Assembly (NCBI GenBank): GCA_003144275.1
Contig: NJBF01000033.1
Location: 17,443 to 49,442 of the forward strand
Reading direction: 5' to 3'
From: Candidatus Heimdallarchaeota archaeon B3_Heim
GTDB lineage: Archaea; Asgardarchaeota; Heimdallarchaeia; Hodarchaeales; Hodarchaeaceae
DNA: 32,000 nucleotides
The notes below the pieces were generated by a model that was given only the letters and a program-made list of their open reading frames with translations, did not search any database and had not been told where the DNA came from. The position numbers were made by a program, and so were the translations under genes. Below, in pieces: positions 6,532-11,351 of the stretch; the stretch's first letter is position 1, and the number at the start of each line of letters is the position of its first letter.

Positions 6532-7302
6532 CTAGTTAGTTTTCTTTTCAAGATAAGCTTTTAACTGTAAATAAAGATCCTCTAACGTACCTGAATCATC
6601 AATTGGAAACTGAGGGTTTTCGCGATCTAAATCTGTGGTAATGATCTTATCTGGGGCAGTATTTGTTTCGATGAAAAAAGTCTTGATCCCAAGCTTTCCA
6701 GCAACCATATCATTAATTCTATCATTACCAATCATTGCACATTCATCTGGAGATTTGTTGATTTTTTCCAGGACTTCCTCATAATACGTGAGATACGGTT
6801 TTGCAGTAGAATAAGCATCGGCAACGGTTATTTCTAGCCAGGGAATTATATCTAATCCAATTTTACCCCAATTAAGTCTCTTTTCTGTTGCAATTCTTGG
6901 GAACAGGGGATTAGTAGCGGCTACCACATGAAAATGTTGGGATACAAGATGAAGTAAGGGCTGAGCAAATGGAGCTGGTGAAATAATTTGGGCCAATTGA
7001 TCAAATTGATAGGCATAAAAATGGAGGAATCGTTTTAAGATTTCTTCAAAAGGAAGATTTAGTTTTGGACTAAAGTGAGCAGCAAATTTCTCAAGGTTTG
7101 TAAGTCCTTCAGGTTCCTTTTCTAACATTGCATGAGTCGAAGTTAAGAATAATTTCATAAATTCTTCATAAGAAGATATCTCTTCGGTAAAATACGCATG
7201 AATATTCTTGCCATACATAGGAATGAACTCATTTTCATCAAACATGATCAAGGTATTGTCTAAATCGAATAAAAGTGTAGTAATTTCATTCCAGTTAATC
7301 AT
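6532..7302 (-). CDS. HAD-superfamily hydrolase (phosphatase)
   Basis: Motif I FDLDNTL, motif II ATNP, motif III AKP, motif IV MIGNDRINDM. Confidence 0.9.
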   Translation of the reverse strand: MINWNEITTLLFDLDNTLIMFDENEFIPMYGKNIHAYFTEEISSYEEFMKLFLTSTHAMLEKEPEGLTNLEKFAAHFSPKLNLPFEEILKRFLHFYAYQFDQLAQIISPAPFAQPLLHLVSQHFHVVAATNPLFPRIATEKRLNWGKIGLDIIPWLEITVADAYSTAKPYLTYYEEVLEKINKSPDECAMIGNDRINDMVAGKLGIKTFFIETNTAPDKIITTDLDRENPQFPIDDSGTLEDLYLQLKAYLEKKTN

Positions 7303-7524: not shown

Positions 7525-9087
7525 ATGACAAGTCCAATGAGACCAGTTTCACGGAAGAAATCAAGCGCATTAAAGTTCACTGCTGAAAAAGTAAGAATAT
7601 ATCCAAAAAATACAGTAATTCTTTCACCAGAGACTGGTTTGTTTAAGGGGAGTTTCAAAAATCCGCAACTTCAATTAATATCCCCAACACAAACCGTCTT
7701 TACCGAGCATATCGTCATCTCTGACCATGTACCCGTCGATAAGATATGGATTTCAAAACAGATGCTAAATGAATTAGATGCAGAGGACGGGGATATTATT
7801 CAAGTATTACCTCTAAGTCGCACACCACCCGATTCTTATTATTTAATCCGTAAACGAATGATGCATAGAAGAGCATTCAAGGGTAATGAAATAGAACAAG
7901 TTGTTAATGATATTGCATATCACAGATTGAATCAATTAGAAAAAGCTGCTTTTGTACTTTCTCAAATCTTTGAACCGTTTAATATGGATGAGATTGAAGA
8001 ATTAACAAAGGCTATGGCTCAAACAGGAGAGATGATAGATTTCGGCCAGCACACAGTCTTTGACAAACATTCTACTGGGGGTGTTCCCGGTAATAAGGTA
8101 ACTCTTTTGATTGTGCCGATTATCGCCGCCTCTGGATTATTAATTCCCAAAACAAGTAGTCGAGCAATTACTAGCCCTTCAGGTACGGCAGATACTATGG
8201 AAGCACTGGGATGTGAGGTCATTTTTACCTCAGATGAACTAGTGGAAATTTCCCAAAGAACTAAAGGAATGATTGTATGGGGCGGAGGATTCAATCTTGC
8301 ACCAGCTGATGATATTCTAATTAAAGATGTTGAATTTCCACTAGGAGTAAATCCCACTTCGATGATGCTTGCATCAATTATGTCTAAGAAGCTGGCCACT
8401 GGGATTCATTTTCTCGTGATGGACCTACCTACTGGACCCGGTACTAAAATCTCTGATATAGGAACAGCCCAAGCTCTAGGTAGAGAATTTGCTGAGCTAG
8501 GAAGACGTCTAGAAATTAGAGTTGAAAGTGGAATTACTTTTGGAGCATCTCCAGTAGGTCATACTGTGGGAAGCGCTTTAGAAGCCCAAGAAGCTCTTCA
8601 GACATTAATAAATCCCAAAGAAGGCCCATCTAGTTTAGTAGAAAAGTCCTGCGAGTTGTCAGGGATATTACTAGAGATGGCTGGTAAAGCTCTTAGAGGG
8701 CAAGGTCGGGAACTGGCAAAACAAATCCTTTATAGTGGAAAAGCGATAGAAAAATTCCGAGAAATCATCGAAGCCCAATCAGCCAATCGAGATATGAAAC
8801 CTGACGATATTGAAATTGGACAGTATTCTATTGAAATTCCTGCTCCTTCCTCTGGCTGGATAGTTCAAATTGATAATGTTAAAATTGCTGAAATTGCTCG
8901 AACCGCAGGTTGTCCCAAAGATAAAGGTGCCGGTATCGTCTTTTTAAAGAAGAAGGATGCTGTTAAACGGGGTGAATCATTAATTCGGATTTATTCATCT
9001 TCTGAATCCCGTCTATCTGCCGCTGAAGGTAAATTTGCTAAGTTAAATCCTATTACTATTGAAGGGATGCTCATAGGTCGAGTTTAG
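7525..9087 (+). CDS. deoA: AMP phosphorylase/thymidine phosphorylase family protein, paralog 1 (putative catalytic Asp replaced by Asn)
   Basis: DKHSTGGVPGNK, PKTSSRAITSPSGTAD, LAPADD, LASIMSKK, DLPTGPGTK, ARTAGCPKDKGAG, and the archaeal N-terminal beta-barrel extension. It reads GVNP where the family has xIDP. Confidence 0.92.
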   Translation: MTSPMRPVSRKKSSALKFTAEKVRIYPKNTVILSPETGLFKGSFKNPQLQLISPTQTVFTEHIVISDHVPVDKIWISKQMLNELDAEDGDIIQVLPLSRTPPDSYYLIRKRMMHRRAFKGNEIEQVVNDIAYHRLNQLEKAAFVLSQIFEPFNMDEIEELTKAMAQTGEMIDFGQHTVFDKHSTGGVPGNKVTLLIVPIIAASGLLIPKTSSRAITSPSGTADTMEALGCEVIFTSDELVEISQRTKGMIVWGGGFNLAPADDILIKDVEFPLGVNPTSMMLASIMSKKLATGIHFLVMDLPTGPGTKISDIGTAQALGREFAELGRRLEIRVESGITFGASPVGHTVGSALEAQEALQTLINPKEGPSSLVEKSCELSGILLEMAGKALRGQGRELAKQILYSGKAIEKFREIIEAQSANRDMKPDDIEIGQYSIEIPAPSSGWIVQIDNVKIAEIARTAGCPKDKGAGIVFLKKKDAVKRGESLIRIYSSSESRLSAAEGKFAKLNPITIEGMLIGRV

Positions 9088-9090
9088 TCA

Positions 9091-9128
9091 ATTTATTTCT
9101 CTCTTCCCCTTTTTTATTGGTTATTTTT
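9091..9128 (+). terminator. Candidate archaeal oligo(T)/pyrimidine-tract terminator after paralog 1
   Basis: The tract atttatttctctcttcccctttttttattggttatttt lies immediately after the stop at 9087. Confidence 0.45.
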
Positions 9129-9368
9129 GAGCGTGTTAATGAATTCTCTAGCTGAAATTTCCCAAAAAGAAAGCTGTAAAAAAGGCCAGTGATTTAGTAA
9201 AACAATAAGTTAGTAAAGAGTATTCACAATAGATAATCAATTTAACGAGTCTTTCTCCATTCAATAAGAGATATAGCTAAACTCATCACTCTAGAATCTC
9301 GGGGAAGATTTTGTATTCTAAGGGTGAGATTTTTCTCTTTATCCACTGTAGAACAGGATGTACAATAT

Positions 9369-10877
9369 ATGAAATTAACACTTAAAGAAATACCTTTAGA
9401 TTCACCATTCGCGCTTATTAATGAGCAAAATTTTCCTAAAGCAATTACTTATCCATGTCAATTACGAATCTCATTTGATAGCACTTATTTTCCTGTACAA
9501 GCTTATTTAACTAGTAAATATGTCGATAAAGGGGAGATTGGTTTGTCTGAATCTGTGATCAAACGATATGGCTTGTTGGAAGGGACGGAAGTGGATGTTC
9601 AGACTAGACGAACATTTGATTCAGTTGCACATAGACTGATTATTGATAAAGTTAAAGGAAATATGCTCAATAAAGAAGACATGGATACAATTACAAAGGG
9701 GTTCATGAATGCGGAGATTTCTCCTTCCCATTCTTCTGCATTTTTATTGAGCCAGCATTTCACAGAGTTCTCCTTGGATGAAATAGAAGCAATGGCCCGT
9801 TCTTTTGCCGATTCGGGAAAAATTCATGATTTTTCAGCTCCAGTCTTTGATAAACACAGCATTGGAGGTGTTCCAGGCAATAAAATTACGTTATTAATTG
9901 TACCCATCCTTGCTGCTGCTGGATTACTCATTCCCAAAACATCTACCTATGCTATCACTTCTGCCAGTGGCACAGCAGATACAATGTCGGTTTTGGCACC
10001 TGTTGAGTTAAATGCTGATGAGGTTTTTGATCTAGTTAAAAAAACGAAGGGATGTATAGTATCTGGCCGTGATATGGGGATTGCGCCCGTTGTTGATAAA
10101 ATTATCACAGAGGCTGCCTTTCCTTTGGGCATTGATCCTGAGTCCCTATTCCTTGCAGGAATATTAGCTAAAAAGCTTGCAATGGGAGTAGATTTTATGT
10201 GCTTGGATATTCCGGTTGGTACCGGCACTAAAGTTGATAATGAAGAAGATGGGCGTACTTTAGCCCGTTTATTTGTTAGTTTAGCATCTAGACTTGGTAT
10301 AAAAGCCGAAGCAGGATTAACCTATGCTAATGTCCCCGTTGGTCATAGTATAGGTCCTGCGTTAGAAGCTGCTGAGGCGTTAGATGCATTAGCTGGAAAA
10401 GGCCCTACTTCTTTAGTTGAAAAAAGCTGTGAATTAGCAGGGATTATTTTTGAGTTAGCAGGTATGACGGGTCGCGGTCTTGGCAAACCATTTGCTGCCG
10501 ATATATTACACAGTGGAAAAGCTTTGAAAAAAATGCGTGAAATCATTGAAGGTCAGGGAGGAGATCCAAAAATATCCTCAGATGAAATTCGTGAAAAACT
10601 CGTTGGGAAACCTGTATTATCATATCAAGCACCTGGAGATGGGTGGCCTCATACTTGGAACAATTACGCTTTAAAAGAGATAGCTCGTGCAGCAGGGGCA
10701 CCAGGGGATCGATTAGCAGGAATCCAAATTTTATCCAAAAAAGAATCCGTGCGCAAGGGTGAGGAAGTTTTTCGTGTCTACGCATCCTCAGACTCGGCTT
10801 TGGATGAGGTAAGAGGGCTTATTGCCAAATTACGTCCCGTTATCGTTGAGAGTGTCCTTTTGGAAAGAGTTGCCTAA
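9369..10877 (+). CDS. deoA: AMP phosphorylase/thymidine phosphorylase family protein, paralog 2 (altered AMP-binding residues)
   Basis: DKHSIGGVPGNK, PKTSTYAITSASGTAD, GIDPESLFLAGILAKK, DIPVGTGTK, ARAAGAP. ATG 9369 (MKLTLKEIP) is preferred over GTG 9324. Confidence 0.92.
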   Translation: MKLTLKEIPLDSPFALINEQNFPKAITYPCQLRISFDSTYFPVQAYLTSKYVDKGEIGLSESVIKRYGLLEGTEVDVQTRRTFDSVAHRLIIDKVKGNMLNKEDMDTITKGFMNAEISPSHSSAFLLSQHFTEFSLDEIEAMARSFADSGKIHDFSAPVFDKHSIGGVPGNKITLLIVPILAAAGLLIPKTSTYAITSASGTADTMSVLAPVELNADEVFDLVKKTKGCIVSGRDMGIAPVVDKIITEAAFPLGIDPESLFLAGILAKKLAMGVDFMCLDIPVGTGTKVDNEEDGRTLARLFVSLASRLGIKAEAGLTYANVPVGHSIGPALEAAEALDALAGKGPTSLVEKSCELAGIIFELAGMTGRGLGKPFAADILHSGKALKKMREIIEGQGGDPKISSDEIREKLVGKPVLSYQAPGDGWPHTWNNYALKEIARAAGAPGDRLAGIQILSKKESVRKGEEVFRVYASSDSALDEVRGLIAKLRPVIVESVLLERVA

Positions 10878-10949: not shown

Positions 10950-11351
10950 TTAAATCATAGCTGCAAGCTTTTTTGCTGCACGTTTCATATCTAAAAGAAT
11001 TAATCCCAATTTAGCGTTGGCACGGGCGATACCTACTAGAACAGCATGCTCTCCAGAATCACGAATAATGACTATTCCATTGGATCCAGTGATAATCACC
11101 TGTTCCATTATCCCTCTCTCTAACTCAACAACCACTCTTTCCGATAGCGATAAGCTAGCTGCTGTCATGGCAGAGATACGATCTTCGTCGGTATTAGTAT
11201 AGAGAGCACTCGCGATGGGTAATCCATCTCTGGTTACAACGGCAAGCCCTTCTAAATCTGGAATTCTGCTTTGAACATCTTTCAAAATTTGTTCAATTTG
11301 TGCCAACCTATCCATAATTTCTTGGTCATCATTCTCTAGCAATCGGTTCAC
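10950..11351 (-). CDS. Roadblock/LC7 (MglB-like) domain protein
   Basis: GLAVVTRDGLPIAS, EDRISAMTAASLSLSERVVVEL, ITGSNGIVII and AKLGLILLDMKRAAKKL are canonical for the family, with a short N-terminal helical extension. Confidence 0.92.
   Translation of the reverse strand: MNRLLENDDQEIMDRLAQIEQILKDVQSRIPDLEGLAVVTRDGLPIASALYTNTDEDRISAMTAASLSLSERVVVELERGIMEQVIITGSNGIVIIRDSGEHAVLVGIARANAKLGLILLDMKRAAKKLAAMI

Follow-up and report, generated by a model that had tools for sequence, protein, structure and literature searches.

The two tandem genes in the analysed window, a stretch of 32,000 nucleotides from an Asgard (Hodarchaeales) archaeon, encode members of the NP-II/AMP (NMP)-phosphorylase family which are predicted from their sequences to be working enzymes with a complete phosphate/ribose-phosphate machinery and a leaving-base pocket rebuilt differently in each. 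We tentatively interpret them as base-specialised nucleotide phosphorylases, a reading to which we assign a probability of about one half; most likely, the pair is a variation on a known enzyme and not a new kind of system. The substitutions in each paralog are the conserved signature of an Asgard subfamily, termed N-type for paralog 1 and G-type for paralog 2, and not private decay. The genes concerned are arranged as follows:

6532–7302, minus strand: HAD-family hydrolase (Pfam HAD), divergent from paralog 1
7525–9087, plus strand: paralog 1, an open reading frame of 520 amino acids; N-type AMP/NMP-phosphorylase homolog
9088–9368, plus strand: intergenic spacer; an oligo-T tract comes right after the stop codon of paralog 1
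9369–10877, plus strand: paralog 2, 502 amino acids from the ATG; G-type AMP-phosphorylase-like protein
10950–11351, minus strand: Roadblock/LC7 protein (Pfam Robl_LC7), a conserved neighbour of G-type genes

The reading frame of paralog 2 is open from a GTG at 9324 (9324–10877, plus strand; 517 amino acids), but the ATG at 9369 is the likelier start because the orthologs, 502 residues long, begin at its equivalent. The two paralogs are 49% identical across 383 residues and show almost no alignment over their N-terminal ~130 residues. Their best PDB matches are the Thermococcus structures (E about 1e-119), and both share with the AMP (NMP) phosphorylase of Thermococcus kodakarensis (Tk; 4GA4/4GA5/4GA6; TIGR03327; EC 2.4.2.57) roughly 40–50% identity, the phosphate- and ribose-binding residues, the C-terminal tail pattern and an architecture of three domains, one of them the archaeal N-terminal domain. 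Against TIGR03327, an equivalog profile of 500 positions with a curated cut-off of 535 bits, paralog 1 scores 546.2 bits (profile positions 13–499) and lies above the cut-off, paralog 2 scores 485.2 bits (positions 8–500) and lies under it, and a third, near-canonical paralog on another contig (G000:C54), which keeps D256 and S264 in Tk numbering and carries E250Q, is at the cut-off with 535.5 bits. The AF2 models reached a pLDDT of 89 and a pTM of 0.83 for paralog 1 and a pLDDT of 85 for paralog 2. The latter model superimposes onto 4GA5_A (Foldseek) with TM scores of 0.90/0.94 and an rmsd of 2.2 over 500 columns, its only internal low-confidence segment being residues 210–212 in the loop after the Arg195 position.

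Residue equivalences were fixed by HMMER alignment to 4GA5, the solved structure from Thermococcus, and to the thymidine phosphorylase of E. coli (EcTP), the human enzyme being abbreviated hTP. Every codon named in the sequence-only reading was checked and proved exact, and both reading frames are as it described them. The relevant positions, all on the plus strand, are:

8161–8163, plus strand: CGA, R213 of paralog 1
8329–8337, plus strand: V-E-F of paralog 1
8350–8352, plus strand: AAT, Asn276 of paralog 1 (Tk Asp256, EcTP Asp178)
8374–8376, plus strand: TCA, S284 of paralog 1
8539–8541, plus strand: TTT, Phe339 of paralog 1 (Tk Tyr319), the second N-type-specific change
9945–9950, plus strand: ACC-TAT, Thr208-Tyr209 of paralog 2 (Tk Ser194-Arg195, EcTP Gly114-Arg115) in the glycine-rich phosphate loop
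10113–10121, plus strand: A264-A265-F266 of paralog 2, of which Ala264-Ala265 (GCT GCC, 10113–10118) correspond to Tk positions 249–250 (A249/E250) and EcTP Arg171-Asp172
10134–10136, plus strand: GAT, D271 of paralog 2
10158–10160, plus strand: GGA, Gly279 of paralog 2 (Tk Ser264, EcTP Ser186, hTP Ser217), the position of the base-binding Ser

Compared to the Thermococcus enzyme, paralog 1 carries D256N and Y319F, and paralog 2 carries S194T, R195Y, E250A, S264G and Q322V. The alignment upholds the earlier view that neither copy is canonical and that the changes do not overlap; the base-pocket set of the Thermococcus enzyme (E250, D256, S264 and R/K195) is kept by neither. Both paralogs retain the phosphate-binding residues and the catalytic His, which corresponds to the essential His116 of hTP (PMC2719695), and no catalytic residue is lost in either. 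In EcTP the base is bound by Arg171, Ser186 and Lys190, which align with Tk positions 249, 264 and 268; in hTP the base pocket is lined by Val208 and Ile214, the counterparts of Tk 255 and 261 by motif numbering. By the same numbering, Val208 corresponds to the residue before Asn276 of paralog 1 (PMC2719695). Homology to thymidine phosphorylase would place the subfamily changes in or beside the base pocket, the probable placement of positions 250, 256, 260, 319 and 322 being derived from sequence adjacency and not from coordinates. The role of proton donor, which had been attributed to the Asp of the xIDP motif, sits poorly with the family, since position 256 is D in 85, E in 17 and N in 12 of 120 cluster representatives.

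The N-type proteins form an Asgard clade of 55 members with the signature D256N and usually Y319F. Asn occupies Tk position 256 in 53 of them, and two proteins nested inside the clade have Asp again; position 319 is Phe in 48 of the 55, while 67 of 69 canonical proteins have Tyr there. N-type proteins and the third paralog type together constitute one clade (99% support), and the G-type proteins a clan of 47 (98% support) marked by S194T, S264G, E250A/G, Q322V and an Arg195 relaxed to K/H/R. Position 194 is Thr in all 47. At position 250, 64 of 69 canonical and all 55 N-type proteins have Glu, 27 of 28 proteins of the third type have Gln, and 43 of the 47 G-type proteins have Ala or Gly; position 264 is Gly in 46/47 but Ser in all 152 others. 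At position 195, all canonical and N-type proteins have R or K, and the G-type shows K (19), H (18), R (9) and Y (1), with Lys or Arg in the deeper members and Tyr found only in paralog 2 and the closest species (G063). The pairing of N/D with SR/TY noticed in the two paralogs does recur in related genomes, but in the form SR/T[HY], as position 195 is usually His in the close orthologs of paralog 2. Of the refuting condition set in the sequence-only reading, that Asn/Tyr at these positions be common among active homologs, half is borne out: Asn at 256 occurs fairly often among homologs, whereas Gly264 is limited to a single clade and Tyr195 to paralog 2 and that closest species. Positions 249, 250, 256, 260, 261, 264, 319 and 322 vary by subfamily, whereas the phosphate- and ribose-binding residues (K-H-S, GG, N-K, K191, S193, T198, S199, T203, D205, K268/K269 and D280) show little or no variation in any of the four groups, G-type included, a pattern that fits the sub-functionalisation suggested earlier.

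Over ortholog pairs, dN/dS amounts to 0.02–0.06 for paralog 1 and 0.03–0.09 for paralog 2 (0.036 and 0.074, respectively, in the unsaturated pair of this genome and G063), which indicates strong purifying selection. Since both genes are intact and under such selection (0.02–0.09 overall), decay can be dismissed, as the sequence-only reading had already argued from the intact frames. Three paralogs are retained across the 21-genome genus.

The canonical pocket is predicted to contain two carboxylates, Glu250 and Asp256, together with Ser264. In the N-type enzyme, Asp256 is replaced by Asn and Tyr319 by Phe, in the third paralog Glu250 by Gln, and in the G-type enzyme Glu250 by Ala, Ser264 by Gly, Gln260 by Leu and Gln322 by Val; the loss of these four side chains would leave the G-type pocket larger and apolar, with a further relaxation at Arg195 of the phosphate loop. 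In this scenario, the three phosphorylases would divide the nucleotide substrates among themselves by base. The exchange of a carboxylate for an amide next to the base is a classical swap between amino-base and oxo-base preference, and in the NP-I purine nucleoside phosphorylases Asp204 of the E. coli enzyme versus Asn243 of the mammalian one constitutes a base-specificity switch. D256N of the N-type and E250Q of the third paralog are changes of the same type, on an unrelated fold and hence comparable by analogy only; we know of no NP-II enzyme for which such a switch has been shown. The characterised AMP phosphorylase is a generalist acting on AMP, CMP and UMP (PMC9700705), so that splitting this range among paralogs appears plausible.

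With the NP-II nucleoside phosphorylases E. coli DeoA, human TP and Bacillus PyNP the paralogs share the fold and the catalytic loop, and the base-binding helix motif ASIxxKK aligns unambiguously. Nucleoside phosphorylases hold the pyrimidine by Arg171, Ser186 and Lys190, whereas in the AMP-phosphorylase types the Arg gives way to Val or Ala and the G-type, unlike the NP-II nucleoside phosphorylases, is also devoid of the base-binding Ser.

Each enzyme would convert a nucleotide and phosphate into the free base and ribose-1,5-bisphosphate, from which an eIF2B-family isomerase and subsequently type III RuBisCO would lead to 3-phosphoglycerate. The genome of this marine-sediment or cold-seep archaeon (judged from the labels of runs with 21–36% of the sampled words) likewise contains the type III RuBisCO and a candidate for the eIF2B-family isomerase of the pentose bisphosphate pathway (PMC9700705). 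The RuBisCO (L005:1483-2790, minus strand) scores 538.9 bits against TIGR03326 with a cut-off of 497, in line with the pathway link proposed for the pair. An isomerase candidate exists as well (L007:1462-2412, an e2b2 protein), but with 204 bits against its best family TIGR00511 it stays below the cut-off of 314 bits; a separate MtnA is above its own cut-off. A pathway operon for the pair was considered and rejected, as the RuBisCO and the isomerase candidates are on other contigs, and in this respect, as in having three paralogs, the organism differs from Thermococcus with its one generalist. The HAD hydrolase upstream, which has only weak NCBIfam matches, to pyrimidine 5'-nucleotidases, is found at the same position in five genomes of the genus (G062, G066, G071, G072 and G074) and one gene off in G073, and may be functionally linked to paralog 1.

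Several findings stand against base specialisation: the very Ser-to-Gly change of paralog 2 abolishes hTP activity, this paralog carries Tyr at position 195, it scores below the TIGR03327 cut-off, its N-terminal domain is gone in nine orthologs, and the isomerase candidate falls short of its family. The nine orthologs, from sister species, are devoid of the ~90-residue domain and thereby, with ~432 amino acids, correspond in length and domain content to the NP-II nucleoside phosphorylases, while the N-type partner retains the domain; in G074, a remnant of the G-type domain holds three stop codons. G070 has such a short G-type form, with the Ser-to-Gly change, near a full-length copy. Nishitani and co-workers are said to have found in 2013 that this domain is essential for the activity of the Thermococcus enzyme.

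A second interpretation, which we consider unlikely, is that the G-type is no NMP phosphorylase but represents a new activity on the NP-II/TrpD fold, whose enlarged, apolar pocket, with Glu250, Gln260, Ser264 and Gln322 all gone, would accept an aglycone that is bulky, modified or non-canonical. The protein would operate within an Asgard module of the Heimdall, Thor and Odin lineages comprising the G-type enzyme, the tandem PHI-like sugar-phosphate isomerase and the Roadblock/LC7 protein, often with the N-type as partner or subunit. An orthologous Roadblock protein accompanies the G-type genes in five separate lineages, with 50–70% identity for those beside the genes of LC_3, Thor, L037 and L038 and 87–97% within the genus, and the tandem PHI-like SIS protein also travels with them. 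A complex prediction for paralog 2 and its Roadblock neighbour, run without controls, gave a score of 0.00, which counts neither for nor against an association.

It is similarly improbable, in our estimation, that N-type and G-type subunits co-assemble into a hetero-oligomer via conserved central and C-terminal dimer interfaces, in which the G-type subunit would be auxiliary, regulatory or the carrier of a second specificity. The persistent co-localisation would fit a heteromer as well as it fits base specialisation: the genes are adjacent in 10 of the 12 genomes of the genus that carry an N-type gene, and adjacent or within 3 kb of each other in the deeper lineages of LC_3, L037 and an Odin MAG, and 17 G-type/N-type pairs have the same longest-contig figure, which is only a proxy for location on one contig. 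The C-terminal tail common to both proteins and the selective loss of the N-terminal domain from the G-type partner point in the same direction. However, tandem duplicates may trivially be kept or lost together. Moreover, the genes are on opposite strands in LC_3, Odin and L037 and more than 6 kb apart in Thor, and the oligo-T tract and the spacer length of 237–282 bp suggest separate transcription units. In G075, the spacer measures only 33 bp. An Rfam scan of the window matched no family, and we therefore see no riboswitch in the spacer. Strict co-occurrence as a proof of partnership is weakened by three genomes with a G-type but no N-type gene nearby (G397, L036 and L038) and by G072, with an N-type but no detectable G-type gene. 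G072 and G076 are fragmented assemblies with the Roadblock ortholog at or near a contig edge, and for this reason the absence of the G-type gene from them is not secure. The G-type, finally, has invariant catalytic and ligand residues for which a purely structural subunit would have no use. Representatives of ~900–1000 amino acids, considered as paralog fusions of the Rosetta-stone kind, turned out to be single AMP phosphorylases with intein-like insertions of ~430–490 amino acids and were rejected.

That the three paralogs are redundant, broad-range NMP phosphorylases with tolerated substitutions, differing only in regulation or expression, we regard as decidedly unlikely. The variability of position 256 among the 120 representatives, the tolerance of K at 195, the N-type score above the equivalog cut-off and the two N-type-clade members with Asp are compatible with redundancy, but Gly264 occurs in only 4 of these representatives, all G-type, and comes with four other concerted pocket changes fixed across lineages only 45–50% identical; three paralogs under strong purifying selection across the genus likewise argue for distinct roles.

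Very doubtful is the idea that paralog 2, as a non-catalytic pseudoenzyme or a sensor of ligands, still binds phosphate and ribose phosphate without cleavage and has a regulatory role, perhaps together with the Roadblock protein conserved beside it: the hTP mutant S217G shows no detectable activity (PMC2719695), and the H/Y at the Arg195 position, the low-confidence loop adjoining it, the domain loss in sister species and the score under the cut-off would agree with inactivity, and the Roadblock ortholog found with G-type genes in five lineages would agree with such a role, but the catalytic His, the K-H-S motif, S193, T203 and K268 are invariant in the 47 G-type proteins, the deeper members have Lys or Arg at 195, dN/dS is similarly low in both paralogs, and concerted clade-wide pocket changes are expected of a new specificity and not of loss.

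The archaeal pentose bisphosphate pathway starts with the AMP/NMP phosphorylase, which is known from essentially one characterised generalist, and the Asgard genomes have in effect run their own specificity experiment on it. If the paralogs indeed split the nucleotides by base, the blanket automatic annotation as "AMP phosphorylase" or "thymidine phosphorylase" would be too coarse, reconstructions of Asgard nucleotide salvage would need revising, and positions 250, 256 and 264 would provide a testable specificity code for a family already used in biocatalysis. Should a mixed multimer or a new G-type substrate prove true instead, the NP-II fold would have acquired a new functional form.

The assembly of the B3_Heim genome (3.95 Mb, 94% complete; the window lies on its contig C74) contains two neighbouring genes of the AMP phosphorylase family:

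7525-9087, + strand: paralog 1, a 520-aa open reading frame for a full-length AMP phosphorylase homolog
9324-10877, + strand: paralog 2, a 517-aa open reading frame for a full-length AMP phosphorylase homolog

Since the orthologs of paralog 2 are 502 aa long, its translation probably begins with the ATG at 9369. The two proteins are 49% identical across the C-terminal 383 residues, and their N-terminal domains are divergent. Residue equivalences were taken from HMMER alignments to the Thermococcus kodakarensis AMP phosphorylase (Tk; 4GA5) and E. coli thymidine phosphorylase (EcTP). Asn276 of paralog 1 corresponds to Tk Asp256 and EcTP Asp178. In paralog 2, Thr208-Tyr209 correspond to Tk Ser194-Arg195 (EcTP Gly114-Arg115), Ala264-Ala265 to Tk Ala249-Glu250 (EcTP Arg171-Asp172) and Gly279 to Tk Ser264 (EcTP Ser186). 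The substitutions which the sequence-only reading had noticed in the two active sites are thus real, every codon named there being as described. Judged from their sequences, both paralogs probably work like, and clearly descend from, an NMP/AMP phosphorylase; compared with the characterised AMP phosphorylase, however, the base pocket is altered in both, and only paralog 1 lies above the curated equivalog threshold, paralog 2 falling below it. A third homolog of the genome, encoded at 13483-15006 of contig C54 (507 aa, 535.5 bits), retains Ser194, Arg195, Asp256 and Ser264 and carries Gln at position 250. Directly upstream of this near-canonical paralog lies a gene for a 393-aa protein (L002:47-1228), whose first ca. 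100 residues weakly match the AMP phosphorylase N-terminal domain (TIGR03327 positions 4-106, E 8e-5) and whose remainder, which matched no NCBIfam family, appears vWA-like by eye.

With both paralogs as queries 223 homologs were gathered and scored at Tk positions 193/194/195/256/264/268. The canonical signature SS[RK]DSK was found in 95, that of paralog 1 (N-type, SS[RK]NSK) in 66 and that of paralog 2 (G-type, [SA]T[KHRY]D[GA]K) in about 58 of them. The G-type proteins form a single clan supported by 98% in FastTree and IQ-TREE alike. In a tree with distant outgroups they join the N-type grade, inside which the third-paralog clade is nested, in an Asgard superclade (99% support). Among 120 representatives of 50%-identity clusters, used as an unbiased sample, position 256 is D in 85, E in 17 and N in 12, position 195 R in 105, K in 8, H in 5 and Y and G in one each, and position 264 S in 116 and G in four, all of the latter being G-type. 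Asn256 is, therefore, a recurrent variant, Gly264 a rare clade marker and Tyr195 a local oddity. Only B3_Heim and G063, a relative at 98% identity, have Tyr195; in other G-type proteins the position is occupied by His (close orthologs) or by Lys or Arg (deeper members). A literature search retrieved no paper describing the N-type or G-type subfamilies. Eight homologs of 900-1000 aa (P0224, P0244, P0250, P0256, P0261, P0291, P0304 and P0340) contain a single insertion of ca. 430-490 aa, located after the PKTSSRAITS loop or close to the KHS-GG loop, which resembles an intein placed in a loop of the active site.

The phosphate- and ribose-binding residues of the nucleoside-phosphorylase-II family (K-H-S, the GG loop, N-K, K191, S193, T198, S199, T203, D205, K268/K269 and D280) are invariant or nearly so in every group, including 47/47 G-type proteins. 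The variable positions are compiled below.

Residues of the subfamilies at the variable positions (Tk numbering)
249: canonical V; third type V; N-type V; G-type A
250: canonical E; third type Q; N-type E; G-type A/G
256: canonical D; third type D; N-type N; G-type D
260: canonical Q; third type M; N-type M; G-type L
261: canonical M; third type M; N-type M; G-type F/I
264: canonical S; third type S; N-type S; G-type G
319: canonical Y; third type Y; N-type F; G-type Y
322: canonical Q; third type S; N-type S/L; G-type V

In EcTP the base is bound by Arg171, Ser186 and Lys190, with which positions 249, 264 and 268 align. Motif numbering matches 255 and 261 to Val208 and Ile214, which line the pocket of human thymidine phosphorylase (hTP; PMC2719695). 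The changed positions 250, 256 and 260 are sequence neighbours of such base-binding or pocket-lining residues. Tk Arg195 is equivalent to hTP Arg146, which is located in the glycine-rich phosphate loop. Accordingly, the polar group of the putative base pocket that is altered is a different one in each of the three paralogs of the genome: the third type and the N-type show carboxylate-to-amide exchanges (E250Q and D256N, respectively), and the G-type appears to have lost four polar side chains.

We consider sub- or neo-functionalisation by base the best explanation of the paralogs, with a probability of roughly 0.5. Four arguments suggest such a split: the catalytic and phosphate-ribose core is invariant across the subfamilies, the changes are concerted, clade-wide and placed at or beside base-binding or lining positions of thymidine phosphorylase, purifying selection is strong, and the characterised ancestor is a generalist which acts on AMP, CMP and UMP (PMC9700705). 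Of the two ideas in the sequence-only reading, the residue pattern lends no support to an enzyme/pseudoenzyme pair and favours split specificity.

Neither gene is decaying. In the unsaturated comparison of the B3_Heim genome with G063, dN/dS (Nei-Gojobori) amounts to 0.036 (paralog 1) and 0.074 (paralog 2), and the remaining genome pairs gave 0.02-0.09. The AF2 models are confident (pLDDT 89 and 85, respectively); that of paralog 2, whose sole weak internal segment comprises residues 210-212 right after Thr-Tyr, superimposes on 4GA5 with TM values of 0.90/0.94, the N-terminal domain included. In nine genus members, G071 and G075 among them, the ortholog of paralog 2 is a short protein of 389-446 aa devoid of this domain. 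In G074 (C48; L018/L026) its loss is caught in progress: the spacer between the paralogs contains a decayed remnant of the domain, matching the profile from position 29 and interrupted by three stops (two TGA, one TAA), in front of a short G-type gene whose 432-aa core is still under purifying selection.

The linkage survey covered 268 Asgard species genomes that are at least 85% complete, a G-type call demanding at least 700 bits with the G-type profile. Of the 15 genomes in the window's genus, 11 possess a G-type and 12 an N-type gene; one distant genome, G397, has a G-type gene as well. The genus keeps the order HAD hydrolase (-), N-type, G-type, Roadblock (-), membrane protein and thiolase, and in four genomes the G-type gene is followed by a tandem PHI-like SIS gene. 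The recurrent neighbours are:

6532-7302, - strand: HAD-family hydrolase whose resemblance to pyrimidine 5'-nucleotidases is only weak
10950-11351, - strand: Roadblock/LC7 protein; orthologs at L010:5247-5639, L013:4122-4505, L037:5921-6325 and L038:11189-11575
Other genomes: tandem PHI-like SIS protein beside G-type genes, at L026:8193-9335 (G074), L012:4574-5785 (Odin), L013:4546-5778 (Thor) and L038:9872-11035

The paralogs are separated by TldD/PmbA genes in G063 and by one unassigned gene each in G069 and G070; in G073 a carboxypeptidase gene parts the HAD from the N-type gene. The insertion in G063, the closest relative (98% identical proteins), is a metallopeptidase pair on the opposite strand (L014:2395-5298). 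Outside the genus, an Odin MAG and L037 have the N-type and G-type genes side by side in convergent orientation; in Heimdall LC_3 the distance is 3 kb, and in a Thor MAG, where matching contig sizes suggest that both lie on one contig, it exceeds 6 kb. For 17 G-type/N-type pairs an equal longest-contig size is reported, which is a mere proxy for a shared contig. G-type genes of G397, L036 and L038 have no N-type neighbour. The persistent linkage and the loss of the G-type N-terminal domain would fit a mixed multimer of N-type and G-type subunits, which we nevertheless regard as unlikely. Simple redundancy of the paralogs, compatible with the variability of position 256, leaves the G-type signature unexplained and is improbable.

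The Roadblock/LC7 ortholog adjoins G-type genes in five separate lineages, with identities of 50-70% across the Heimdall, Hod and Thor lineages and 87-97% within the genus, a conservation exceeding that of the enzyme. In hTP, Ser217 hydrogen-bonds N3 of the base, and the S217G mutant is inactive (PMC2719695). The mutant result and the Roadblock neighbour would fit a non-catalytic, ligand-sensing G-type protein, an improbable reading that agrees poorly with its invariant catalytic residues. The tandem SIS orthologs (32-43% identity), likewise recurrent across lineages, are ca. 380-410 aa long and consist of two 6-phospho-3-hexuloisomerase-like domains, both halves matching TIGR03127 below its cut-off. 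The homolog in the B3_Heim genome (L035:6824-7981) lies away from the pair and adjoins a 3-hexulose-6-phosphate-synthase-like gene. In most genus genomes the HAD hydrolase and N-type genes form a divergent pair, as they do in G072, in which no G-type gene was detected. A haloarchaeal HAD protein is a RuBP phosphatase (PMC9700705).

With respect to a functional split by base, the bases preferred may tentatively be deduced from the pocket. Purine nucleoside phosphorylases, which have a different fold, possess an Asp/Asn switch, and by analogy the amide variants E250Q and D256N may prefer oxo bases. The apolar and enlarged pocket of the G-type suggests a bulkier or unusual aglycone. As to the fate of the sugar phosphate, the genome encodes a type III RuBisCO (539 bits versus a cut-off of 497), a RuBisCO-like protein and MtnA. 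It also has an eIF2B-family protein that matches ribose-1,5-bisphosphate isomerase best, although its 204 bits fall short of the cut-off of 314. None of these genes is close to the paralog pair. On contig C96 this eIF2B-family protein, the best R15P-isomerase candidate of the genome (L007:1462-2412, +), divergently adjoins a gene for a 311-aa small-GTPase-domain protein (L007:311-1243, -). With the above set of RuBisCO, MtnA and eIF2B-family genes, a downstream pentose bisphosphate route in this archaeon is plausible.
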